DNA of 64,000 bases. It comes from a virus. Under the pieces are notes generated by a model. That model ran no database searches. It was given only the letters and a program-made list of their open reading frames with translations, and had not been told where the DNA came from. The position numbers and the translations under genes are program-made. Shown piece after piece: positions 24,601 through 46,800 of the stretch. The stretch lies in IMG/VR virus record IMGVR_UViG_3300028044_000003, positions 47,531-111,530 of that record. One strand, given 5' to 3'. Each line of letters starts with the position of its first letter. Position 1 is the stretch's first letter.

Positions 24601-27600
24601 TTAATTGAGCACTTTCTTTTTTAGTAAAACCGTTAACGTTTAGTATGTCTTGTCTAAGAGAGTTTATTTGTTCTTGTATATCAGCTAAAGTATCAATTTG
24701 TTCTTCAGACATTATAGTACCATCAGGAGTATTGTTATCATCCTTACTAATATTAACCATTGATATTTGTTGCTCAAGTAGTTTTGATATTTTTTCCATA
24801 GCCTCTCGTTGTTTATCACCTTGAGGCATTCTATCTTTTATAGCGTTTAACTGTTGAATCTTTTCTCTAAGAACATTATAATAAATTACTTTACCATCCG
24901 CATCTACTTTTAATCTTTGATAAGTATTTTCTTTTAACCACTCATCTTCTCTTCTTCGTATTTCTTCAGCCTGGGTTACCGGATCTAATAGCTCTACAGT
25001 TATCAATCTGTCTTTAAAAGCGTTAAACTCATTCTCAAAAACACCAATTCTCTCCCTTTCTTCATAAAAGTTTCTAGTAAGCTTTCTATGTTCGATTAAT
25101 ATATCAGTTATTTTTCTATCAAACTCGTTTTTAAAATTACCATTACGATCATAGTAACTATACATTTCTTTATATCTGATACGAAGCGCTCTTAGGTTTT
25201 CTGCTACAAGAGCTTCGTCATCAAGTGCTAAGTCAGGGTCAGTTTGGGCGTTAAGATCATTAAACCAATTATCTCTTAATTCTCTGGCAGCAGCACCTTC
25301 CGCGGAGTTTTTAAATATATCATCCTTAGCATAAAACACATCAGTATAAGGTTGGTGAAACCACTTTCTTAAATATTCTAGATACTCTGTCTTTTTTTGA
25401 TTTAGTTCTTTTTCAATTTCAGAATCACGAGTTCTATCATATTCTTCTTTTAATTGTCTTATTTCTAACTTTTTTTGAGAAATAGTATAATCAACATCTT
25501 TAAACTTATCTATAAAAGCCCATACTTCTTTAGGTTTAATTTCACCATCTTCTTCAAAACCTCTTTTATCTTTAAAACCAATTTCCCTACCCAACTTACC
25601 CTGTTGTCTTTGAGTATATCCAAGAGCATCTAAAAGAGGCTTTAATACTTCAGTTTGATTATAGTAAGTATCAAAACTTTTTACATTAACTTCTATAAGG
25701 GCATCCTTAAGAAACTTAGCAAAACCTCCAATAACTGGATCACTCTGATACATATATCCTTCCAACCATCCGTTAAAATAATTTGAATCACCGAGGTTAC
25801 CTTTTAATGTTTCTAGTATTTTTTCTTTGGTGAGAATAACACCTTCCGTATACATTTTCCTTTTTAAACGTTCTAACTGAGCTTTATCTTTTATATTTAA
25901 ACTACGCGCAGAACTTAAACGATCGTAAGTTTCTTTTTCACTAATAGTTAAACCGTAATATTCTTTATGATAAGCTTCGATTTGAGATTGAGGAGCTCCG
26001 TTTAATTGTAAAGTCCTGATAATTTCTGTATAGTATTTATCATTTCTTTCAGCCATATCTTCCCACTGTTCCCAAAGAACTTGACCCACACCTTTTAAGT
26101 AACCGGTTTCATTATCACCCTGTACTTCTTTACGGGCGTTTTCAAGGTTTTCATCAATATTATTTACAAAAGAATAAATAGGATCATCTGTTTTTAATTT
26201 CAAGTCATTATTAAAAACATTCATAGTATTCTTAGTAAAGTTCGACCAGTAGTTTATGATGTTTTCATAGTATTTTAACTTTTTAATATAATCTAAATTC
26301 TGCTTTTTAGTAAGATCTGATAAGTCTGAGTTTATAACTTTAATATGTTCTCTAAGTTTGGAAACCATGTTTTCTACACGGTTCAGAGTAACTACAAATC
26401 GATTAGCCCTGTCTTTAGTAAGCTCTAAATCTTTTTCCAGTTCTAATTTTAACTTATTAAGATTCTGTGTAAGATCGTATAAATCACCTCTCTGATACTC
26501 ATCTTTTAAAGCTTCAATCAACTCTTTGTCTTTCAAAGGATTCATAGCTCTGATAGTACCCCTGGCTTTATCGTACATGTCTTTTACTATTTCGAACACC
26601 GGTGCCGCGTTATCATTAGTAACATCCATGATACTCTTAATTAACTCAGCATTGTTATTCTGATAAGCAACAATATCACCTTGAGTTATTTTTGTAGAAT
26701 CTAGTTCAAACTGCTCATCATCTAGTAATATTTCGGCCAGGTCATATAGTGTAGAGTTTTCATTAATTCTACTTACCGGTTTGTTACCGAAAAGTTTGTT
26801 CAAGAAAGTTCTAAGACCTGTGAAAAATCTTTGTATTAGTGTAGGTAGTATGTTATCCGGTTTAATACCCTGAGCTTTTTTACTAGCTGATAATTGTATT
26901 GCTTTTACTAATACTTCTTCTTTTACAATTCCTGAGTTGTCTTGGACTCCTGAATATTCATCCAGGGTTTGTTGTAGTATCACCTGTCCTTCCGGCGTGG
27001 CTATAAACTTCTCGTATAAATCATTCATTAAACGAGGGTTTTCTACCATAAGAGCTCTTACAAAAGGGTGAGCAAACTCGTGGAACTGTGTTTCAAAGTC
27101 AATATTGTTTCCGACAAAGTATACTTTACCTCCCAAGAAGAAAGCTTTTTGACCTTTCCAAGGATTTTTTGTACCGGTGGTTAGTTCAAAAGCTTTGTCT
27201 GAAGTAATTATTTGAAAAGGTACTCTTAACTTATTTGATAATTTTTCAGCGATTTGAAATACGATACTAAGAGAACGGTCTTCTTCTGACGCATTTGGTT
27301 CTATTTCCTGGATCGAATTTTCTCTAATAAATTCTTCTCTTAATTGATCATAAACATCTTCAGAAGTTATTGTATCACTATCAACTTTATTATCTATAAA
27401 TGTATTTTTATTACTAAATGTAAAATGTCTAAACCCTTTAATATTAGCAAAACTACCATCACTTTTTCTATTAAATGGAATATAATTAGCAAAGTCTCGA
27501 ATATCTTTAGCCCTACCCATTTTTATTTTAGATTCGAAAATAGGTTCCCAATCTTGAAACCCTTTTTCGTTTTTATCTAATTCTAAATCAGATACAAAAA

Positions 27601-30600
27601 ATAAATCAATAAGATATCCATCAATACTCCCAGTTATTGTTACATCGTTTTTTTTTAATCCTTTAAAACTATTTGTTATTTTAAATGAAGGATATTCTTT
27701 TTTTATAGAGTTTAATAAAGGATGTTTTTTATAGTTTTTTGCAAGTTCTTTTTGAAATTTTTCCATCAAAAATATCTTACCTGTTTCTGAAGCCCCTTCA
27801 AATTGAGATTTTATGTCTTTATATAACTTGTTAAAATAATCACCTTGTTTATCTAAAGTCACCGTAAAATCTAAGTCGTGTAAATCTTCAGTTATTTCTC
27901 TATAAAGAGTACCTTGTTTTCTTAAACTCAAACTTCCTGTAAGTAATAAACCTAATTTTTGAAATTTTGATATTATTTCTTTGGCTTTTTCATCTTTTTC
28001 AATAGTATTGTTATAATTAGTTATTTGTTGTTCTGTATCTAAAATCGTTCCAAACTTATCAAAAGTATTATTTAACACATCGTTTGCAATATCAGATAAT
28101 AAATTTTGTAGTTCGTCATTAGTTAATTTAGTATTTAGAAATAATTTTTCTAAAAACTGTTTTACTTTAGATAAATAATATTTAATTTGTTTTTCTAACT
28201 TACTATTACCATCTATTCTCCAGTAATCGGCTTTTCGATTTTGATAACTATCTCTAGGATTTTCAAAATTATTTTTGATTGCGTCAGCTATAAAATCTAT
28301 AACTATTAATTCTTTTATAGTATAATCATTTAACTGAGGACTTCTTTTTTTATAATCTTCAAAAATTTGTTGATAGTTATTAATATTTTCAATACTATAA
28401 ACTAAATCTGTTCTAATCTTATTTTTTTTACCTAAAAAACTGTAAGCAACATAAGCCGTTTCTTTTAATAATCCTTCGTCTTTAAAATTATTTTTTATTC
28501 GAATAGTTTTATATAATAGATCTGTTACTGCTAAAGGATTAAATTCGTGTAATAATTCGTTTTTAAATTCTGTTGTAAAGTTTAAACTATTAAGGAAATC
28601 AATTAATTTAGACGATAATAAATCTTCAAAATTTATTTGTTCTTCTACTCCTGGTTTAACGTTAGTAAAAGATTGAGTAACAAACTCTCTAAATCCTTCT
28701 ATGTCTTGTTTAGAACCTAATATGTGAATTTGTTCAGGTTCAAATATAAGACCTATATCACCTGGAGTTATAATAGAATCATATCCGTTCTGTATAAATT
28801 TATCTTTATATTTTTGCTCTAAGGAATCGTACTGTAAGCTATCATCTTCAATATAAGGATTTTTTAAATTTAACAACAATCTTTTTATTTTATCTCCAAA
28901 TATACCACTCGACTTATAATAACTAAAATATATACCCGGTGTTTCTATTGCAAAATTTAAATCGAATTTTTCAAAATCCGCTTTACCTTCATGATAAACA
29001 ATATCTTTTACTTTGCTATCAGAAAATATAGTGTCTAGATATTGAGAGTATAGTTGCTGAGCTTGTTGCTTTTGTTGTGGGGTTATTTCTTTAGTGAAAT
29101 CATAACCTTCATCATTAGTAGTAAACCCTTTTGATTTTAAAAATGTTTTTAAATCATTTAATAATTCATCTCTTAATTTATCTCTATTTTCTAATGCTTT
29201 GTCTCCAATATCTTCTATGGAATGTGTTTCTGTGTAAAATGGTCTTATTAATGTAAATTTAACTGCTCCTAAAGAAATTGCTTTATTTATTTTAGGTATA
29301 AATAAATCTAACAATTCATTTATTTTATCTGCTTCAAAATCATAAATTTCTGGCTTTAAAGCTACTTGAGCATTTTTAAAATCTTTATCATCATATTCTG
29401 GAATTCTTTCATCATTAGTAATGATTGCTTTAGATTTAACTACGGTATTAAAACCTAAAGCTTCATATACAGCATTAGCTAATTCAGGATTAGAATCAAA
29501 TAGTTCTTCTACTCCTGGTTTAATTTGTCCTAATGAATAATATAAATAATTAGGGTTTGAAAAATAATCATTAAATGAAGTTTTAAAATCAATAAGGTCT
29601 CTAATATCTTTATTTCTACCTATATCCATCTTAGCTTCAAAAGTATCTTGCCATCTCATGTCTCCAAATGTATTTTTATTAGATGGAGGATTGATATTTA
29701 TAAAAAAGTCAACAGGCATACCTTTGATTATTAAAGTATGAGTTGTTTTTTCACCTTTACTAAATACTTGAGCTTGATTTGTTTTTGGATTTATTTTATA
29801 GGTTAAATCTGGAAAAGTAGATTTTACTAAATCTAACCAGTTATCTTGTAATTCTTTTGGTACTTGCCAATCTAAGTCATGCAAGTTATCATTAGATTCT
29901 CTATATACAGTTCCTTCATTTGAAAGAGCTGGAGAACCTGTAAACATAAAACCTAAAGAATTTAATTTATGATATATTTTATTTATAGTAGAATTATTTT
30001 CTAACACTTCTTTTAAAGATACAACAGTTTCTCCTTTTCTAGCTCTACTAGAATTATTAACTATTTTAGATGTATTATTAAATAATATATCATCTACAAT
30101 TTCATTTATTACAGCATCAAAAGGTCTAATGTTAACTTTATTAACACCTTTAGTTTCAATACCTCTTTGCTTTAAAAATCTATCAACAGCTTTGTAATAA
30201 TCTGATTTCCATATTTTATTAAATAAAGCTAGTATACCATTAATAATAGTTTCTAAAGTTGTTAGCTTTTTATCTTGCTTTGTTTTTTTAGTTCTATCTT
30301 TATTTTCTACTATTCTTTCAGCTAAAAGTTTACTAAGTATTTCAACTTTTAATTTTCTTTCATTGTTTTTATAGATAGGATCATTTTTATATAAATCATA
30401 ATACTGTTGGTATTTTTCCCAACTAGCTATATTTTCTAATGCTCTTCTAATTAATGGAGATGCTTCAGCGTGTTTGCTAGCACCCATAAACTCAATTGCA
30501 AAAGTAGCAACCTCTTCAGCATAATCTAAAGTGTTATATTTGTTAGAATCAAGAAATACAGCTTTGTGTAATATATCAGATACTGCAACAGCATTACTAT

Positions 30601-30955
30601 TTAATCCTTTTTCTTGTAATCTTTTTTGTAAATTATTTACAACTATAGTATCTACATTAATAGATGTTAAAAAATCTTTTAATTTATTTTCAAGGTTGTT
30701 AGCTAATTCAGGATTAGAATCAAATAGTTCTTGAACACTCGGTTTTACTCCTGGTTTTATTTCTTGTACTACTCGTTCACCAGGTTTATTAAAACCCATA
30801 TTTCTGTCAGAAATCTTTTTAATAACTTCTTCAGGAGTACGTATAACACCATCGTTCTCTAACCAATCCCTCATTGCTTCAAACTTACCGATCAAAGGAT
30901 TATTTTCTAAAGCTTTCCACTCTGGAGAATTAAAATTAGGACAAGAATTTTTCAT
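21674..30955 (-). CDS. giant virion-ejected polyvalent protein (2 nucleotidyltransferases, ART-like domain, zincin peptidase, LysM)
   Basis: 3093 aa, directly downstream of vRNAP; GS..DLD motifs at ~29870-29938 and ~27869-27938; VYH..GIYFS..NLKNP..GYDSII; HEFAH 27068-27082; LysM 22545-22676. Confidence 0.85.
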   Translation of the reverse strand: MKNSCPNFNSPEWKALENNPLIGKFEAMRDWLENDGVIRTPEEVIKKISDRNMGFNKPGERVVQEIKPGVKPSVQELFDSNPELANNLENKLKDFLTSINVDTIVVNNLQKRLQEKGLNSNAVAVSDILHKAVFLDSNKYNTLDYAEEVATFAIEFMGASKHAEASPLIRRALENIASWEKYQQYYDLYKNDPIYKNNERKLKVEILSKLLAERIVENKDRTKKTKQDKKLTTLETIINGILALFNKIWKSDYYKAVDRFLKQRGIETKGVNKVNIRPFDAVINEIVDDILFNNTSKIVNNSSRARKGETVVSLKEVLENNSTINKIYHKLNSLGFMFTGSPALSNEGTVYRESNDNLHDLDWQVPKELQDNWLDLVKSTFPDLTYKINPKTNQAQVFSKGEKTTHTLIIKGMPVDFFININPPSNKNTFGDMRWQDTFEAKMDIGRNKDIRDLIDFKTSFNDYFSNPNYLYYSLGQIKPGVEELFDSNPELANAVYEALGFNTVVKSKAIITNDERIPEYDDKDFKNAQVALKPEIYDFEADKINELLDLFIPKINKAISLGAVKFTLIRPFYTETHSIEDIGDKALENRDKLRDELLNDLKTFLKSKGFTTNDEGYDFTKEITPQQKQQAQQLYSQYLDTIFSDSKVKDIVYHEGKADFEKFDLNFAIETPGIYFSYYKSSGIFGDKIKRLLLNLKNPYIEDDSLQYDSLEQKYKDKFIQNGYDSIITPGDIGLIFEPEQIHILGSKQDIEGFREFVTQSFTNVKPGVEEQINFEDLLSSKLIDFLNSLNFTTEFKNELLHEFNPLAVTDLLYKTIRIKNNFKDEGLLKETAYVAYSFLGKKNKIRTDLVYSIENINNYQQIFEDYKKRSPQLNDYTIKELIVIDFIADAIKNNFENPRDSYQNRKADYWRIDGNSKLEKQIKYYLSKVKQFLEKLFLNTKLTNDELQNLLSDIANDVLNNTFDKFGTILDTEQQITNYNNTIEKDEKAKEIISKFQKLGLLLTGSLSLRKQGTLYREITEDLHDLDFTVTLDKQGDYFNKLYKDIKSQFEGASETGKIFLMEKFQKELAKNYKKHPLLNSIKKEYPSFKITNSFKGLKKNDVTITGSIDGYLIDLFFVSDLELDKNEKGFQDWEPIFESKIKMGRAKDIRDFANYIPFNRKSDGSFANIKGFRHFTFSNKNTFIDNKVDSDTITSEDVYDQLREEFIRENSIQEIEPNASEEDRSLSIVFQIAEKLSNKLRVPFQIITSDKAFELTTGTKNPWKGQKAFFLGGKVYFVGNNIDFETQFHEFAHPFVRALMVENPRLMNDLYEKFIATPEGQVILQQTLDEYSGVQDNSGIVKEEVLVKAIQLSASKKAQGIKPDNILPTLIQRFFTGLRTFLNKLFGNKPVSRINENSTLYDLAEILLDDEQFELDSTKITQGDIVAYQNNNAELIKSIMDVTNDNAAPVFEIVKDMYDKARGTIRAMNPLKDKELIEALKDEYQRGDLYDLTQNLNKLKLELEKDLELTKDRANRFVVTLNRVENMVSKLREHIKVINSDLSDLTKKQNLDYIKKLKYYENIINYWSNFTKNTMNVFNNDLKLKTDDPIYSFVNNIDENLENARKEVQGDNETGYLKGVGQVLWEQWEDMAERNDKYYTEIIRTLQLNGAPQSQIEAYHKEYYGLTISEKETYDRLSSARSLNIKDKAQLERLKRKMYTEGVILTKEKILETLKGNLGDSNYFNGWLEGYMYQSDPVIGGFAKFLKDALIEVNVKSFDTYYNQTEVLKPLLDALGYTQRQQGKLGREIGFKDKRGFEEDGEIKPKEVWAFIDKFKDVDYTISQKKLEIRQLKEEYDRTRDSEIEKELNQKKTEYLEYLRKWFHQPYTDVFYAKDDIFKNSAEGAAARELRDNWFNDLNAQTDPDLALDDEALVAENLRALRIRYKEMYSYYDRNGNFKNEFDRKITDILIEHRKLTRNFYEERERIGVFENEFNAFKDRLITVELLDPVTQAEEIRRREDEWLKENTYQRLKVDADGKVIYYNVLREKIQQLNAIKDRMPQGDKQREAMEKISKLLEQQISMVNISKDDNNTPDGTIMSEEQIDTLADIQEQINSLRQDILNVNGFTKKESAQLRGLYRSLDRGIPGIQQLISSLYATAKARKRKAGINDKDLERYNLLVQEISDMSSKEPTEYYLDILNDKIKNIEGLPDDFMLKNFGQDVNEITISNVDRLYENILGLDNEVLKELFKASPEFKAWFEKNHYQEVYYDKDRDNEIEVWKRLNIWTVKTPVGDEYYKKREVTYSNGDVVSINRIPNYKYIRKVVKKEYTDENGNVVKLRTEKIVGKTVTNTKEWLPKELPDSPFRNERYYELKNASPDSRDGKLFKLLEKVKEFHLKNQEGKPVRSRLYYDFPRFESSLYEKIITSKEDRQRGISKTLGKKFPIFEYIIRRIRQFYQKAKDDGLETLNPDLDYDLVRVTSEGIEPDTIPVQGLYNIPIDDVSTDFITSMYAYASSLIKQEKLIEIHPIAKALDQVLKTNTPKELEKLDKKNFLNNAIEFVKGDSNVRSNIYETLMKREFYDERLLGFGKNSKPIQTFSKFIFGRASMAMFALNIPAALKDYLGSKYQKMLLMSGGKYIDPKSIAKGEAWAFKVMSEKSFGSASEGMGPQIYQIGAKTLNVQLTELFQVSMKDPRESFARAASRSLPSDVLGMSWLYNFREWLQGQSETSLFGAMMYKQTVYQYDKPIAYMDAWEIRDGVLTIKEGIDPDYGPRKTTHLFVTGDTMDSISTRYNIPIDELKKRLGLENFNDVEPGTELTIATGAKFKDMLNKFNIVQQSLEGNYANMNQPLAQGFLFFRFISYLKKFFTTMFVERFAFAGDPLSGNIRPRYNPGLNELKMGFYISTLRNLYRLSKNTSEQWGIMNQEERFNMLRMPLEIMGLIFIQSLLLPLFGWDEDDDEKYEKLREKSGDLPLPFIADDPEHPFRLMGWAENHALLLAMNVRSENETFIPLPGFGLDDYTKLLDFQSLAFGPTIESYSKMGALGYHTLMNNERAYYKRDSGPYEWQQEGGSKFITTLAKSIGIDGSNVSPIEKIKQKISIKNRSAGG
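28639..28659. repeat. 21-nt direct repeat (copy of 29503-29523), encodes KPGVEE
   Basis: GTTCTTCTACTCCTGGTTTAA identical at both sites. Confidence 0.9.
29475..29523. repeat. central composite copy of the cassette-boundary repeat (IKPGVEELFDSNPELAN)
   Basis: 29475-29508 is identical to 30699-30732; 29503-29523 is identical to 28639-28659. Confidence 0.92.
30699..30732. repeat. 34-nt exact direct repeat (ELFDSNPELAN)
   Basis: TTAGCTAATTCAGGATTAGAATCAAATAGTTCTT, identical to 29475-29508. Confidence 0.92.
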
Positions 30956-30964
30956 TGAATTTGA

Positions 30965-33900
30965 TTATTTAAAACAAGTTACGAAATTACTAATAACATC
31001 TTGATCTGATACAGGTTGTTGTGAAGTTACTATGTCTTTAAGTTTTTGAGATGAAGTTTCTATTATAAAACCAGGGTTATAATATCCAAAGTTTTTTAAT
31101 AACTCGTTAGATAAATAAAGAAAACCTCCCCTATAATCATCTTTATTCAAACTTTGACCATAACCACTAGAACTTAACATTAAGCTTTTATCTTGGATAT
31201 CTTCTCTAAGCTGTGTAATAAAATTATCTACATCAGTTTTTAGTTTAGGATTAGCAACCAAAATACCTTTATCATTTCTAACATCTTTAAGATTTGTTTT
31301 TAATATATCAAATTTTATTACGTTTGGTTTATTAGGTATTTTTTCTGTTACACCCACACCGTCTACTAAAAATAGAGCTCCTGGAAACATTGAGTATACA
31401 TTTTCCATCGCATTATTATCCCGGTACTCAAATATGTTTTCTTTTAGAGGTTTAACAGTGTCAAAAAAAATACTTTGATCAGTACTTACATCAGTTAATA
31501 GTTCTTTTAAAGATTGAATTTTACTTATTGGTGAAACATTAACAGGGGTTACTTTTGTAGTTACACTAGGTTGAGTAAATTGTATAGATTTAAGTTCCCC
31601 TCTAACTTCCATAAGAAGTTTGGAAAATCTACCTTTATCTTGTTCTATACCATTATATTTATGTGTAAGTTCAGCATTTCCTGTAGCTAATAACTTAGCA
31701 AGAGCATCTGGATTTTGTTGGAAAGAATCTTTTAATAATGCTTTCATAATTGTTGGAGACATGTTATCCCAAACTTTCTGATCTAATCCTTTAAACTCTT
31801 TTCCTAATTCTCTAAGTCTTTTACCATCTTTAGTATCTTTTATAACACTACCTACAGCTCGATTATTCTCATTCTTAGGAGAGAACTCAGTTTTATAATA
31901 TTGAAACGCTTGTTCTACAGAATCAAAATTTATACCTAAGTGTATAAAAGGTCTAATAGCAAAGTTACTTAACTCAGCATTCTCTCCTGTACCAGCGTAA
32001 ATATTAATCTTAATTCCTGCTGCTACTAAAGGATTTGATTCTAGAATCTTGCTTGTCATCTTCATTCCTGTCTTTAAGTCTACATTACTAATGTAAACCT
32101 CACCTGTTTCTTTGTCTACTAAATTATACAAGTCATTATCTTGTAATATCCACTTAGAAGACTGAGGAGCTTTTTCTCTTTTACCTGTAGATTTATTATA
32201 AAACTCTTTAAATCTTGTATTAGTAGTAAAAAATTCTTTAGGCATCTTACCATCAGATTTTTCTACATATTGATTGTATGCATCTATATCTGATTGAGAA
32301 ATAATTTTTACACTTTCACTTTCATCTTCTTCTTGAGGTTTTACTTCAGTACCCCAATCATATTTATTAATAAGATAATCTAAAGCTGTAGCGTGAGTAG
32401 CATAATTCTTTTCTTCATAATAAAGAATAGGACTTTTTATTATTTTACTTGATTTAATATCGTTAATAATAGCTTGTCTATATTCTTTTGTAGCATTAGT
32501 ATTACCAAAATTATTACCAGTAATCATCCACTCAATAAACTTTTTAGTAGATTTTATACCTTGTTCTTTTCTTGTACCTGTTTCATCTGCAAAATCAAAA
32601 GGATTACCTACAGTGTTTCCATCTTTATAATTTTGTAAAAATGTTTTTTTCTTGTTTCCTCTGTATGCAATTAGCATAGGTTTCTTACCAGGAAACTTAT
32701 AATCAAACATAGATTTTGCTTCTGGAACAATATCATTCCAAAAGTTTTTACCTGTATATTCTGTGTTTTCTTCTAAATCTTTAGGTAAGATAACATTTTC
32801 TGATTGTATTAAATTGTCTTTGTTTATGTCAGAATAAATTTCTTCTGCTGTTAAAATAACTTGCGGTTGAGTAGTAAGTTTAGCTGGTGTTGCGGGTATA
32901 CCTGGTTCTAAATCCGCAGCTCTTCTAAATGTAAGGGTAATAGTATAATTAGTAATAACTCTACCATCTGAAAGTTTAATTGGCGGATAAGGATTCTTCT
33001 TTATATTTCCTAATGGCGTTGTGTGAGAGAGAGCAAATCTACCTTTACCATCCATACCAAATGTATAAATAGTACCATCTTTAGTAGCAATTTCATTAGT
33101 AGGTTTTCTTCCTTGGTAATCTTCTTTATAGGCACCTTGGAAAGTTATCTTACCTTTATTATCATCCCATATACCAAGGCCAGAATTATTACCTATTGTA
33201 TAAACAACAACAGGATATCCTTTAGCAGACTTAGCTTCTGTAGTATCTCTATGCGGAGCTATACTTTGGTTATCTAAATATATGTTTCCCAATATAGAAT
33301 CATAATCAGACATATCTAGACCTAAAGCGTTTTGTATTTTATCAATTAACGGTTGTAAATCTGATATAGGAGGTAAAGGATTACCGTTTTGATCTAATTC
33401 GTGATAGTCATAAATATATTTTGACTTATCTACTGTTAATCCAGCTTTTTTTAGAGCCGCTATTTGTTGTTTAGTTTTTTCAACACCAGCAAAAGAATTA
33501 ATTAATAATGGTTTTGCTTTAAGATTTACTCTTGACCACATACGACCAAAAGAAAACTGCCAGTTAGCATTAACTCCAACATTTTCTTTATAAGCTTGTC
33601 TCTGAATTTGAGGAGCTATAAGATTTATAATTTCTTGAGTATCAACTTTTGTAGGATTTGTATCAACTTTAACAACACCGTAATCTGGAGAAACTACTTT
33701 AATTTCAGAAATAAAATCTGATGTTGCCGATATTTCAGATATTTTTTCTAAACCTTTACCAGCTAAAACTTTATTGATAGCTTCTAACTCTTTAACTTGA
33801 TATTTTCTTAACTCTTCAAGAGTTTTAAATCTTTTTAATAATTGTACTTCGTTAGTTATTGTAAAAAATAAATCTACTACCGGTAAATGGTGTAAAGAAC

Positions 33901-36900
33901 CTGTTAATACTGTATACCCACGTTTTGCAAATTCTTTTAATCTACCTCTAACTCTTTCCTTAACTTCATCATTTTTATAACTATATTTTTTTGAAAAATC
34001 TAAAATAATACCTTGAGGAGTTGTTTCGGTAGTTTTAAACTCAGGAACTACTTTATATATTTCTTCTATAGTAATGTCATCAGCGTCAATAACGCTTAAA
34101 GGGTTTTTAGATTTAAAAGTTGTTTTACCAGAGCCAGGAGTAAGGTATATAACCTTACCGCGATATTCGTCTTTTATAGTAATATATTTATCAATAATTA
34201 TATCAGTGTTGTTTGATAAAAAGTCTGCTGAATAATTTTTAGTTCTAGAACCAAAAAATCTATTTAATAAAACGTTATAGTCAGTTAATATATTTTGATT
34301 ATCAGAAATAGATCTGATATATTTATTAATTACTTTTGGATTAAGTACATCTAAATACCTTTGAGGATTTACTAATCTCGTTAAAGTGAATTGGGTACCG
34401 GATATAAAACCTGATTGTAATAACGCTACTATCTCAAACTCTTCAAAAAACTCAGATATTGCCCTATTAATCTGAACATTTTCTACTTTTTTTACTGTAG
34501 GATCTTTTAACTGATTTAACTCATAATTTAGAACTTGTAGTAAATCTTTAGTTAACTGTACGTTTTTTAAAGTCAAATTTTTATAACCGCGGAACTCGTT
34601 TATGTTTAAGATTTCTACCAGCTTATAATCATTAACCAATTTTGGATAACGGTTTTTTATATTATAAAACCTCTGAGCATAATTATTACTTTCTGTAACA
34701 TCTTCGTTTATAACTGTTTGGAATATAGCTCTTGGATTATAAGTTTTTCTAAGAGCTTGATTTTTTAACCATTTTTCGTATTTTTCTACTCTTTTTACTT
34801 TATCTTCAATGTCTTTGTACTTAGTTTCTATAGGGAACATTACCCTGAATAACTCTCTCTGTACTAAAAATTCAGCAAACTGTTTATCATTAGTAAAATA
34901 ACCCTTATAGCTTTTATCCCTATATGTTTTAATATTTTCATCAGAAATTTTATCTACCGGTTTATTATACTGTACGGTTTCTCTGTATAATTTTTTTACA
35001 GTAATAGGATCTATATAAATAGTATACTTATCCTCAGTTTTTGTAACAATTACTCCAAATTCAGAATAGTTAATTTTTTTAGCTTCTGTATCTTTTTTAA
35101 ACTTGACTTCAACTCCTTTAAAACTATTAGCTTTAGTGTAATCAAACTCTAAAATTTCTTTTTGGAAAATGTAAGTAAGTAGGTGATTCTTAAAAGTTTT
35201 TACTTTATACTCTTTATCATCTTTATTAAGAGTATTTTTTACTACATCGCTTGCTATAAAATTATTTAACTCTAGGTTATTTCTTAGAGGAAATAATTTT
35301 GAAATAAACGCTTCAAGATAATCTTTGATAAAAAAAGATTTAAGCATTGTTTCTTTTTCTAACGCTTGTATTTTATCAAGAGGTATACTATCGTCTTTTT
35401 TAATTTTATTAATTTGTTGTTCTTTTTCAATTAGCTCGTATAACGATGCTGGACGAGTAGTATCTGGATTAAAGTTTAATTTAATAGCTCTAACCTTATC
35501 TGACATTTCTTCTACTTCTAAGTAATGTAAAAAGATAAGCTGTTCGTATAATTTTTTAACTTCTGGTTCTATATTTTGCGTCTCATCATCGATTAAGTTT
35601 TGTAAAACTTCTTCTAAAACTCTACCATCATCATCTAGATTAATATTATAATCTAGATTTAATCGATCTTTAATACTACTTATTTTTACATAAGGATTTG
35701 AAATATCATTTTGCGAAAGACCTAATTCTTCACCTATTTTAAATTTTACTTCACTAGTATTTGTTTCAGATAATAAACTATTTGCAGCAATTTTACTATC
35801 GATATATTCAACAATAATCGGCTGACTCATAAAGTTAACTATAGTAGTAAACGGAACACCGGCCTGAACTAAGAATAATATTTTAGGAGCGGCCTCTTTG
35901 TTACCCTGGATATTAAAAATCCAAGGATCTTTTGCTACGTCTACCCATCCGTTAATTAACTGAGATATTACATCAGCTATACGGTTAACACCATTCACAT
36001 CCGTAACATCAGATAAAGAAATAGCTTTTTCATTATCTACTATTAGACTTCTATGTGGTATTAAAAGTCTTTGAGGAAGCCTTTTAGGAACAGTATTATT
36101 TGTTCTTGTAGGATTCATATACATCCCTACAATATTGAATAATGTGTTAAAAGTATTATCTACGGCGCCAAGCCCTAAAGCTTGTTTACCAACAGAGTTA
36201 GAAGTATGACTATGTAAATTATATCCGTATTCAAATATTTTCGTTTCAGCTATTAAAGGTTTTTCTTCTGTACCTAAAAAACCATCAATCGTTTTGTTTC
36301 TAAAAGGATTGTATTTTTTAGATTTAGAAGCCATTCTAGTAGCTTCTGGTTTAGCAATATCAGTATCGTTTGGTGTAATTAAAGATTTAAAATTACTATC
36401 TAATGCTAGTATATCTTTTACTACATTAATAAGATTGTTCTCTAAACCTTTTACAGTATTTTCTGAGGTATCATATTTTACAACACCATCTTTAATACTA
36501 AGGTTAGGCATAGTTACGTTTAACTTATCAACGTCAAAATCCGAACCTGATTTAACAACAATTTCTATCGGAGGAATAATAATATTACCTGCTTCTTTTG
36601 GTAAAAACTCTGCTACCTCCATAAACTCCATAGAGTTATGGCCTTGTACAGGAATACGTACACCAATCATAGTAATCATTTTACGATTACTACCAGTATT
36701 TAACCAAGTTTCATTCTTAATTAATTTATTAAGATTTGCTAAAGAAGCTTTATAGTTTAATTCTTTTTTAGGTTTACCGTTCTCATCTTTTACTTCATCA
36801 TAAACAGCTACTTCTTTTAGATAAAGTAGTTTTTCAAAATCACCTTGTATGGCAATTTTAACTTGCATACTTACTGTACCGTCTTTACCCTTGTGATAAA

Positions 36901-43837: not shown

Positions 43838-46800
43838 TTAACAAGGTTGTATGTTATCTAAAAAAACAGTTCTATTTGCAATTACTTTATTAGGTTGAAC
43901 GCTTACTATTCCAGGATCTTGAGCGTTAGTCTCATCTTGTTTAGTAATAGTTATTTCTTCAGGTTTTACTATATTTTGTGCTAATTCTAGTTTATTTACT
44001 TTCTCAGGAGTTCCTGTAATTTCAGCTATACCGTTTACAATCTTAACCTTTTGTATCATAACATTTACCGGATTTACTTTTATTATTTGATAAGTTATAC
44101 CGCCGGTTAAAGTTACATTCTTATTCTTTTCAATCATAGGAGCTACCTCTAATATTTTTACAGCTTGATCATATATTTCGTTAACGTAAGTTCTTTGTTC
44201 TTCGGTAGCGTTAGTATTATAATTTATATCACTAACTATAGCGTTAGCTTGTTCAAAAAGTTTTTCGTCTAACTTACTTTGAGCTTCTCTTAAAAGAGTA
44301 ACTATTTCATCAATTTGTTTTAAAACCTGTTCTTTTAATTTTGCTCTAGCTTCTGATAATGTTTGCTCCTGTTCTTTTGAAAGCAGTGCACCTTGGTTTT
44401 TATTTTGTTCAATATTTACTATTGCATTAGCAACTTGTTCTGGTTTAGTTGCTTCTGATAAACTATTAAACCCTTTTGTTAATTGCTTTTGACCAAGTTC
44501 AGTTAATTCTTCTTGTCTTCTTCTCTCTATATCAGCTTTAGTAGCTGTACCTGAAGCAGCTAGTTCTGCATCAGCTATATGTTTATCTAATTTAGCTTTT
44601 TCTGCTACAAAGAATGCATCTGCATCAGCTTTGTTGTTAAAAGTTATAACTTCAATTTTTGGTGCTTTTGTCTGAACACCATTTTCCATCTCACCATATT
44701 CTTTAATTTTACTTATAACTTCATAACCTAATCCATTGTCATCTGCTATTGTTTTATCAAAATTAATCGCAAGTCTTTCAACAACGCTGATAATTGCTAA
44801 TATATCATCATATTTATCTCCTATTTTAATTCCTTTAGGTGAATCCTTATGAATAGGAGTACCTTTAGTCATTTTTTTATATTGTTCTTTTTGTTTTTCT
44901 ATATTAGCTTTCTTATCAGAAACAGGAGCTGTAGGAGCTGGTGTAACAACAGAAGCTGGTGTTACAACTTCTTCTTCAGTTTTTGTTACAGGAGCTTGTT
45001 CTTCTACAACTTCTAAAGAAGGTTTAGATATTTTCTGATCGTCTGGTTTATTCTCATTGTATTTATCAATCAATTCTTGACCGGCCGGTGAGTAAAGAGC
45101 GAAATAATATCTTAAAACATTTGTTGGAGTAGTACCTTTTGGATCTTTACCGTATACTTCTTTTATATACTCACCTAATGGTTTATTATAAATAGATTTA
45201 TATATAGTATCTAGTTCTTTAAATAGTTGTACAAACTCTTGATTTATTTGTTCATCAATACGTTTAAGCTGTAAAGTTTTTGAAAGCTCATCAAGTTCTT
45301 TATCTGAAGCACCAATACGTAATTTTTTTAAAGCGGTTTTTTGGTTTTCATCTAAATCATCAAACTCGATTATAGAATAATTATTACGTTGTATTTTTAA
45401 TAAAACAGACGAATTAATATTCTTTAGTTTTTCTATAATCGATTTAGCTTCTTTTTCAGCAGCTTCTTTTACAGCTTGTTCGGCTTTAACTTCTTCTTCT
45501 AATATTTCAGCTATTATAGCCTGGGCTTCGTCATATCTTGGTGTACCAGGTTGAACTAAGGTTCTAGTATTACTATCGTAAATTTCTGTAGGTATTACGT
45601 TATTACGAACGTAGTTATTAATCTGATCAGCTAATAAAAAGAAGTTTTTCTCATCTAACTTAGTGAGTAATAGATTATTTACTTTTTCGATTCTCTTAAA
45701 CTCATCGTAACCTTTATCTATTTGGTTTTTATACTTTTCAGCAGTTCTTAAAGTTAAGAATCTTCTAGAATTAACGACATCATAAAACCATTCAGGAGAA
45801 TCTAAAATGTTAATTTGGTTAGCGAAATCTAAACTATCTTCTGTAAGAACATGGGTATCCATCAAATCAATAAAAGACTTTTTAATTTGATCGTTAAATA
45901 CGGGCTGACCTTTTCTCTTAGCGTTTTGATTTAAGTAATCCTTGTATAAGTTAAATAATAATCTTTCGTTCTCTTCTAAACCATCTATGTCGTCTTTACT
46001 TATTTGTTTTCTTTCAGCTATACCGTTCCAGAATTTATTTAACAAATCTAACTTAGATTCTAATTTTGAAACTTCTTTAGTGTCTGGTTTTTCAGCTAGT
46101 TTTAAAGATTGTATTTGGTTACCTAAAACAACCATTTCACTAGTTCCTAACATTTCATCGGCCAGGGTATTAAAATCAAAGTCCGAAAGATCCTTGAGTT
46201 TATTATCCGAGTTTAAATTACGTAGTATAGATTCTTTTCTTTCCAGGGATCTTTGAAAAGCGTTACGATTAAATAATAACATTTTAACCGCGAAGTCATG
46301 ATATCTAGAAAGTTTAATACTGTCTTCTATGGCTGGACCCTCACCAGAATCTCGAACATTTAAAATATCAGGTTTTATCCACTTTTTATTTATGTCTTTA
46401 TATTGTTGATCTAGATTACTAATCTGATTTAGAGAAGAATCTAATCTTTTACGTAGCGCAGATACATCGGCCATATCTACTTCAAACGCTTCTGATAACT
46501 CTTCATCTTTCATAGTCTTGAAAGAACTTACAGCATCAGTTAATAATTCTGTTCTACCATTTCTTAAAAGATTGAACGTATGTTCGAATAATAAATCGTC
46601 CTGAGCGTTTTGGAAAGCTCCTTGTCTACCTTCTAAGATAGCTCTGTCCATTGTCTCAGCAGCAGCTTTTACTCTAACAGCGTTTTCTAAATTATTCTCA
46701 GTAAACCCTAGAATATTTTTTAATAAAACGTTAGCTGAGTTCATATTCTCAACTTCTTTCTGTTCAGCTCTTTCTATTGTTTGTTTATACTGTTCAGGTT

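Follow-up and report, generated by a model that had tools for sequence, protein, structure and literature searches.

The giant genes of a distant crAss-like phage

The IMG/VR record IMGVR_UViG_3300028044_000003 is an uncultured phage genome of 111,530 bp, estimated to be 93% complete, and the stretch analysed here (the window, 64,000 nucleotides (nt) in length, whose numbering is used throughout unless stated) corresponds to its bases 47531-111530. Three giant open reading frames (ORFs) lie in the window one after another on the minus strand, as do all of the parts of P1-P3 described below: P1 (21674-30955, 3093 amino acids (aa)), P2 (30965-43834, 4289 aa) and P3 (43838-48496, 1552 aa). Inside each of them is a segment almost devoid of the dinucleotide CpG, namely segment A in P1 (28991-30730), segment B in P2 (31430-32854) and segment C in P3 (44267-45039), and the evidence set out below makes it very probable that all three segments are in-frame recombinational imports from distantly related, CpG-avoiding phages and that they retain the signature of their donors.

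The large terminase subunit (TerL), major capsid protein and replication genes of the genome are of the tailed-phage type. TerL matched 136 GenBank records, nearly all of them crAss-like (approximately 24% identity, E values down to 3e-30), and the major capsid protein matched phrog_11589 at 2e-33. P2 is a homologue of the virion RNA polymerase, its conserved part having 28% identity to g066 of Cellulophaga phage phi14:2 (“catalytic RNA polymerase subunit”) and 25-28% to crAss-like phages, and it contains a DFDVD motif at residues 2432-2436 (36527-36541), DFDxD being the virion RNA polymerase motif reported for all crAss-like phages (bioRxiv 10.1101/2020.03.07.982082). As identity of the core genes is low, “uncultured, distant crAss-like phage” is the most that can be said of its affiliation. 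A single TARA scaffold is suggestive of a marine source.

In phi14:2 the block g065-g066-g067 comes after the replication module and on the opposite strand, and P1-P2-P3 occupy the matching positions, with P1 in that of g065 and P3 in that of g067, so that the gene order directly after the replication module is common to both phages. The two blocks differ in that P1 and P2 are about twice as long as their phi14:2 counterparts (3093 versus 1421 aa and 4289 versus 2180 aa) because of added cassettes. The products of g065, g066 and g067 are annotated as virion proteins and all three were detected by tandem mass spectrometry (MS/MS), and synteny with phi14:2 suggests that P1-P3 may likewise be carried in the virion and then ejected into the host cell.

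At least two unrelated enzymatic domains are present in P1 (ART-PolyVal and two nucleotidyltransferase-like modules) and in P2 (the RNA polymerase core, an AlkB-like domain and NADAR). ART-PolyVal (PF18760), the signature domain of the polyvalent class, at P1 residues 652-726, is barely over its gathering cutoff (31.9 bits compared to 31.2), NADAR (PF08719) in P2 is further above it (42.6 bits compared to 35.1) and the AlkB-like 2OG-Fe(II) domain of P2 is sub-threshold (28 bits compared to 31.2). P1-P3 belong to the polyvalent proteins as defined by Iyer et al. 2017 (PMC5512222), which are giant phage polypeptides stringing together unrelated enzymatic domains, here ART-PolyVal, NADAR, AlkB-like and nucleotidyltransferase-like, and for which delivery together with the DNA is presumed, as it is here from the phi14:2 synteny.

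CpG depletion within P1, P2 and P3

A sequence-only reading of the window had pointed to foreign, CpG-depleted cassettes in this region on the basis of manual counts, every one of which proved exact. Positions 29000-30730 (1731 nt, 25.6% G+C) contain 2 CpG compared to 28.1 expected from base composition, an observed/expected ratio (o/e) of 0.07; 32011-32860 and 44330-45035 also contain 2 each (o/e 0.13 and 0.12), compared to 5, 9 and 9 in the comparison stretches 30733-30955, 25801-26040 and 44041-44330 and 6 in the ART-like module at 28740-28980 (o/e of these four stretches 0.84-1.77). The resident genome has an overall CpG o/e of 0.87, with one CpG per 46 nt on average. Around segment A successive CpG fall at 28963, 28979, 29443, 30469, 30740 and 30774, and nowhere in the genome is there a longer CpG-free interval than the one from 29443 to 30469 (1026 nt); the five gaps that rank after it are likewise inside segments A, B and C.

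Under a codon-aware null, in which the protein was held fixed and synonymous codons were redrawn from the genome's own usage, segment A has 2 CpG where 30.1 +/- 4.8 are expected, segment B (taken as 31423-32863) has 5 where 25.2 +/- 4.5 are expected and segment C (44267-45039) has 2 where 14.6 +/- 3.6 are expected. The deficit thus survives correction for both composition and encoded protein, a point on which the original proposal had been made to depend. Arginine is encoded by AGA in 35 of 36 cases across the three segments and NCG codons are nearly absent.

The change-point analysis that had been recommended for placing the edges was less useful: penalised segmentation gave no break at a heavy penalty and only one at a medium penalty, and it was replaced by a codon-aware scan statistic with a resampling null, which did place the intervals. 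The best depleted intervals were 28991-30730 (2 CpG, 30.4 expected), 31430-32854 (5 CpG, 25.1 expected) and 44282-44761, and none of 200 resampled versions of each of the three ORFs attained the observed scan score (for A 23.0 against a null maximum of 14.0, with a log-likelihood ratio (LLR) of 21-23; for B 12.0 against 9.5; for C 9.9 against 8.9). Over all ORFs of the genome, segments A, B and C are the top three CpG deficits and the remainder are inside the null range. The depletion first noticed in segment B is real, but its extent is larger than had been described, running on through the NADAR module to 31430. A search for DNA-modification genes that could account for tolerance of CpG found only the standard replication module.

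Outside the window, a 633-aa ORF (genome positions 2286-4187; window -45244 to -43343) has a CpG o/e of 0.40, with 25 CpG compared to 41.8 expected by the codon-aware null. Its best segment has an LLR of 6.5, which is within the nulls of P1-P3 (maxima 8.9-14.0), and it is not established as an import.

Cassettes, linkers and the edges of the segments

P1 is built of an N-terminal tip, an array of cassettes and a core. Segment A covers codons 76-655 and contains, in protein order, the core of linker 1, module 1, linker 2, module 2 and linker 3. The tip (residues 1-65) has normal CpG. Linker 1 (IKPGVKPSVQELFDSNPELAN; IKPGV...ELFDSNPELAN; 30698-30760, residues 66-86) contains the upper edge of the segment, with the CpG at 30740 in its 5' part. 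Module 1 (29525-30697, residues 87-477) is CpG-depleted and is very probably an imported cassette, having a zincin-like N-terminal half without HExxH and a C-terminal half resembling MenT and ANT nucleotidyltransferases. Linker 2 (IKPGVEELFDSNPELANAVYEALGF; 29450-29524, residues 478-502) is also CpG-depleted and is of the type that is conserved at the nucleotide level. Module 2 (29084-29449, residues 503-624) has its only CpG at 29443 and no assigned function, and no Pfam family was found for it. Linker 3 (TPQQKQQAQQLYSQYLDTIFS; 29021-29083, residues 625-645) is CpG-depleted, the lower edge of segment A lying just past it, and its first 20 residues have 90-100% aa identity in six loci (100% in five).

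Beyond this edge CpG is normal throughout the rest of P1: in the ART-PolyVal module (28661-29020, residues 646-765), which is either resident or an old import, in linker 4 (VKPGVEE) with module 4 (together 27326-28660, residues 766 to 1210), module 4 being a 26%-identical paralogue of module 1, and in the core (residues 1147-3081).

The upper edge of segment A can be placed at 30691-30740, within linker 1, and the lower edge at 28979-29021, adjoining linker 3. The suggestion that the switches in composition coincide with linkers is therefore borne out for P1, where neither edge is more than 50 nt from its linker (1 or 3), but not for P2 and P3, where the edges are at other cassette boundaries (P/T-rich spacers). 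Linkers 1 and 2 have an exact 32-mer in common and linkers 2 and 4 have 21 nt in common; linkers of the SNPELAN and TPQQKQQA types occur in P1 only.

In P2 the accessory cassettes form a C-terminal train. Segment B comprises codons 3661-4135, with a module that we call M_b, a short unassigned module, NADAR and a spacer, all within CpG-depleted DNA. Alongside it lies the AlkB-like 2OG-Fe(II) oxygenase module (32873-33703, codons 3378-3654), with an intermediate CpG o/e of 0.57, and the CpG change point at codons 3655-3661 is the junction between this module and M_b, the nearest relatives of which differ. The contig L033 (5980-7866) has AlkB-like and M_b modules in the reverse order to that of window 31586-33720, so cassette order has been shuffled between phages.

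P3 also carries its cassettes C-terminally. Two sub-cassettes lie in segment C (codons 1152-1410), C1 at 44549-44914 and C2 at 44321-44539, and the linker KADIERRRQEEL (44504-44539) stands between them. The nucleotide sequence of this linker is conserved, with 1-6 mismatches per 36 nt, at about 10 further phage loci, and the nearest relatives of C1 and C2, on either side of it, are in different phages.

The record is a metagenome-derived IMG/VR contig and its linkers have up to 32-75 nt in common with those of other phages, so the segments could be imagined to be an assembly chimera, with reads of a CpG-poor phage joined at the shared linkers. Such a chimera would take six in-frame junctions, four of them without conserved linkers. 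The proteins also occur on independent contigs: the 90% cluster of P1 contains 11 variants, all of 3093 aa, from ENA and JGI assemblies and on contigs of 78-113 kb, and the exact P2 and P3 sequences are each found on 6 contigs, Logan assemblies included. We consider the chance of such an artefact to be vanishingly small.

Relatives of the cassettes in CpG-poor phages

The nearest relative of module 1 is on the IMG/VR contig L003, with 88.5% nt and 86% aa identity over 1179 nt without a gap, 0.07 nonsynonymous (dN) and 0.41 synonymous (dS) substitutions per site. In L003 the cassette is the C-terminal part of a different giant protein, and the DNA homology starts 7 nt past linker 1 and stops in the IKPG of linker 2. 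The L003 locus (13.2 kb) has 16 CpG compared to 294 expected (o/e 0.05; values for relatives were measured over the whole fetched length of their contigs). A library-wide search found the module 1 cassette in six giant proteins at 53-86% identity, placed N- or C-terminally, the remainder of those proteins being unrelated to P1. In every other carrier the CpG o/e of the cassette agrees with that of its flanks (0.05/0.05 and, in four further metagenome carriers, 0.30/0.33, 0.38/0.24, 0.32/0.40 and 0.05/0.07, cassette/flanks), and only in the phage studied here are the two mismatched (0.05 versus about 1).

The other cassettes gave the same picture. M_b has 79% nt identity to L033 (o/e 0.12), C1 82.6% to L035 (o/e 0.22) and C2 93.5% to L036 (o/e 0.14) and 90.9% to L037 (o/e 0.13), and outside the depleted segments the AlkB-like module has 82.8% to L067 (o/e 0.08). 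A search for donors had been proposed along with their supposed identity as CpG-avoiding phages, and it found close relatives at up to 93.5% nt identity among IMG/VR phage contigs; the closest relatives of A, B and C are all on CpG-poor contigs, with o/e of 0.05-0.22. No sampled phage has close copies of more than one or two of the cassettes and none has all of them, in agreement with the idea of different donors for separate modules. In the GenBank phage collection segment A has no DNA or protein match and the 75-nt linker no match, so the cassettes and linkers are carried by no cultivated relative.

The cores tell differently from the cassettes. Cassette proteins have 55-86% identity to those relatives, compared to 25-35% aa identity for the cores of P1, P2 and P3 within the same group of phages: the P1 core has 25-32% to L080, L098 and L100, and P3 residues 32-990 have 25% to L035, L036 and L037. 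A single-sequence pattern search of IMG/VR found no relatives of the P1 core, and those that are known came only via linker-bearing loci.

In symmetrised dinucleotide relative abundances, the segments agree with the donors and not with the resident genome for CG, AG/CT, AC/GT and (in A and C) GC. CG is 0.07-0.17 in the segments, 0.08 in the donors and 0.89 in the resident genome; AG/CT is 1.32-1.42, 1.38 and 1.11; and GC is 1.5-1.6 (A and C), 1.19 and 0.80. The foreign composition that had been read from the sequence is thus a signature centred on CpG, whereas codon usage beyond CpG and its associated dinucleotides is the same as in resident genes; a generally foreign codon usage was rejected, as codon choice not linked to CpG is alike in donors and resident genes (z 0 to 0.6).

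That the depletion is almost confined to CpG, and that all three blocks are within one gene cluster, is what would be seen if selection acting locally in this phage had stripped CpG from these stretches with no transfer at all, perhaps as an escape from a nuclease that is directed at CpG in a particular region of DNA or RNA. Selection of this kind does not explain why the limits of the blocks are cassette edges, why one block is N-terminal in its gene and the other two are C-terminal in theirs, why the like cassettes next to them (ART and module 4) are CpG-normal, or why the blocks have two- to three-fold the identity to CpG-poor phages that the adjacent cores have, and we regard it as extremely improbable.

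Direction and age of the imports

Comparison of two sequences gives no direction by itself, and the CpG of the AlkB-like module is intermediate here, so the traffic could be supposed to have run the other way, with cassettes native to this phage being exported to CpG-avoiding phages that then purged their CpG. A native cassette would be expected at an o/e near 1 and not 0.05, and relatives of module 1 at 61-75% nt identity are all in CpG-poor genomes. Substitutions were also polarised with outgroups (L111 for module 1 and L033 for the AlkB-like module). The AlkB-like module has 12 CpG here and 0 in L067, and at 6 of these 12 sites the outgroup L033 and L067 share the non-CpG state, which polarises the six as gains in this phage. 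Export is on these grounds very unlikely.

On the branch of this phage 7 of 56 substitutions in the AlkB-like module create CpG, with none on the L067 branch, compared to 1 of 58 in module 1. The polarised gains indicate that CpG is being acquired here after import from CpG-poor ancestors. The AlkB-like module (o/e 0.57) arrived earlier than module 1 (o/e 0.05) and has partly restored its CpG, while module 1 and C2 are recent acquisitions, which upholds the suggestion that some of the modules came in recently.

Linkers conserved at the DNA level

Exact copies of a 26-mer from linker 2 were found in 61 IMG/VR stretches on at least 58 contigs and in no GenBank phage. All 61 stretches have a CpG o/e of 0.04-0.61 (median 0.27), and the phage described here is an outlier among the linker carriers. 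When 64 distinct linker copies are compared in pairs, nt identity averages 0.33 in flanks of 90 nt, 0.66-0.75 in the non-selected linker columns and 0.96 in the selected columns. Rare codons are fixed within the linker, CTA in 47 of 61 copies (usage 0.10) and GGG in 36 of 51 (usage 0.07). Among the 11 population variants of P1 there are 9 variable sites, four of which are in linkers 1 and 2, at residues 81, 487, 495 and 499 (window about 30713-30715, 29495-29497, 29471-29473 and 29459-29461), and the changes at 487, 495 and 499 (D/E, A/E and A/V) occur jointly in three of the 11 variants. These linked changes look like conversion tracts from other linker copies.

Taken together, the conservation at the DNA level, the fixed rare codons, the linked polymorphism and the positioning of edges at linkers lead us to infer that the linkers are the usual sites of crossover or conversion, and the linker type KPGVEELF(D/E)SNPELANAVYEALGF probably serves as a crossover site between unrelated flanks. 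A literature search found no paper with these linker motifs.

The transfers may be real without the linkers being where crossover took place. The linkers could be conserved as protease sites or folding spacers, with illegitimate recombination followed by selection for domain integrity; indeed, B and C were exchanged without SNPELAN linkers, and proteolytic release of the domains of polyvalent proteins has been proposed (Iyer et al. 2017, PMC5512222). Protein-level selection leaves the fixed rare synonymous codons CTA and GGG unexplained, and likewise the linker polymorphism, which is linked across several sites in a population that is clonal in other respects, and so we consider this explanation unlikely, though more probable than the other alternatives.

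Identification of a host through the linker 26-mer was tried and rejected, as the four contigs of metagenome-assembled genomes (MAGs) that carry it (L101-L104) were binned inconsistently to Patescibacteria, Bacilli, Ignavibacteriaceae and Neisseriaceae; they are probably phage contigs misbinned into MAGs.

Predicted function of module 1

No Pfam family matched module 1 at E ≤ 1, nor any of its 43 aligned relatives at E ≤ 0.001, and a profile search of the PDB with module 1 gave nothing significant, TM1012 matching at only E 0.8. An AlphaFold model of the module had a mean confidence score (pLDDT) of 88. Model residues 230-387, the C-terminal half, align only with minimal nucleotidyltransferases, at Z scores near 8, which is the background level of the tool: ANT(2'') at Z 8.1 (136 residues aligned, root-mean-square deviation (rmsd) 4.2), MenT1 at Z 8.0 (130 aligned, rmsd 2.8) and TglT at Z 7.3. 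Foldseek matches were at E 0.01 or weaker. The G-S...D-x-D active-site pattern of these enzymes is present in P1 as TGSPALS ... HDLDW, and G254, S255, D274, L275 and D276 are invariant in an alignment of seven module 1 sequences. The C-terminal half thus probably adopts a nucleotidyltransferase fold of the Pol-beta superfamily, as far as a model can indicate. The N-terminal half (window 30040-30697, model residues 1-220) resembles zincin-like domains, including PprI, the N-domain of anthrax lethal factor, the Pro-Pro endopeptidases (PPEP) and ArdC (Z 5.5-6.8), and the HExxH motif is not present in it, so that this half is possibly a protease-like adaptor without activity, joined to the predicted nucleotidyltransferase.

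Origin of the cassette blocks

In the scenario that we favour, a genome without CpG avoidance (o/e about 0.9-1.0) carries three giant genes at the positions of the virion RNA polymerase block, with enzyme cassettes fused to them in frame. Three blocks of cassettes would have been gained by recombination from distant phages of the same broad group that avoid CpG genome-wide (o/e 0.04-0.4), and the imported DNA would keep the dinucleotide signature of the donor because too little time has elapsed for CpG to rebuild. The acquisitions would differ in age, module 1 and C2 being recent and the AlkB-like module older and half restored. Crossovers would occur in the short linkers during co-infection, with 30-75 nt of shared homology preserving the reading frame, and the predicted nucleotidyltransferase of module 1 would target nucleic acids of the host or of the phage at an early stage of infection.

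Several points weigh against this account. The direct donors are unsampled, the nearest relative of module 1 being at a dS of about 0.41, in another protein and with no linker 1, and the searches turned up no close relative of module 2. The compositional evidence is that of one dinucleotide plus those arithmetically linked to it, its edges are resolvable only to about 50 nt, and the significance of segment C is modest, its scan score being little above the null maximum. Segments B and C are not flanked by SNPELAN-type linkers, and DNA conservation of the linkers could reflect recent common descent, a processing site or translational pausing. Finally, it is from synteny that packaging of P1-P3 in the virion is supposed.

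CpG avoidance among the linker-carrying phages

Near-zero CpG (o/e 0.04-0.1 over 5-15 kb) was seen in many uncultured crAss-like phages that carry the linkers (L003, L040, L062, L067, L070, L073, L085, L093 and others). For the 50 linker-carrying loci with a length of 3 kb or more the median o/e is 0.27, and the o/e of the cultivated phi14:2 is 0.41. TpG/CpA is only about 1.0 in the CpG-poor linker carriers, so there is no simple signature of deamination. The avoidance of CpG by the donor clade may report a host defence or a property of the host genome; a literature search found no paper linking Crassvirales with CpG avoidance or describing avoidance in this clade.

Relation to known systems and significance

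Recombinational variability of polyvalent proteins has been raised as a possibility (PMC5512222). The present case differs from that account in that exchange can be traced event by event, through a compositional marker together with donor-like relatives, and in that linkers with nucleotide-level conservation stand between the cassettes; the words “linker” and “CpG” are absent from that paper.

A likeness to the linkers is seen in the polymorphic toxins (Rhs and CdiA), in which a short conserved peptide and its DNA mark off variable domains that are exchanged by recombination. P1-P3 are not members of this group, as their cassettes are serial and internal, at N- or C-termini and in phage cargo proteins. 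There are also no immunity genes or orphan cassette arrays of the Rhs/CdiA type here, the giant ORFs abutting one another (gaps of 1-10 nt) with no small ORFs after the cassettes. For phage modular evolution more generally, Botstein in 1980 and Clark et al. in 2001 reportedly proposed short conserved sequences at the borders of modules as sites of homologous exchange. Those boundaries separate genes, whereas the present ones are peptide linkers, translated in frame inside a single gene.

Compositional detection of horizontal transfer is said to go back to Lawrence and Ochman in 1997, imported DNA reportedly retaining the composition of its donor and drifting towards that of its recipient (amelioration). 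The cassettes follow this model, with one old, partly restored import beside young ones. They depart from it in that the unit is a domain cassette within an ORF and not a gene island, and in that a single dinucleotide serves as the marker, GC content and codon usage being no different here. This is clean, datable modular exchange with textbook amelioration and no new kind of system. Less familiar are the transfer of cassettes that lie inside an ORF, a sharp-edged marker consisting of one dinucleotide, translated linkers that are conserved as DNA and the near-total avoidance of CpG by the donors.

A bolder proposal can be made tentatively, as something quite possible that falls short of being probable. 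The translated, DNA-conserved linkers may constitute a dedicated in-frame exchange system, a 30-75-nt “docking” sequence by which cassettes of injected enzymes are swapped between cargo proteins across a clade of uncultured crAss-like phages during co-infection. CpG content would then be a clock for each acquisition, and the elimination of CpG by the donors (o/e 0.04-0.1) would reflect an unrecognised CpG-directed pressure from their hosts, which the phage described here (o/e about 1) has escaped or never met.

The three genes provide a worked example of how phage cargo, or polyvalent, proteins diversify, with domains being exchanged in frame between phages whose cores are only approximately 30% identical. 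The contrast in CpG flags which parts were imported and lets their arrivals be put in rough order, something seldom achieved for phage mosaics, and the DNA-conserved linkers suggest a testable mechanism for exchange that preserves the reading frame. A CpG scan of the same kind could flag recent imports in phages of CpG-neutral hosts that exchange genes with CpG-avoiding relatives.

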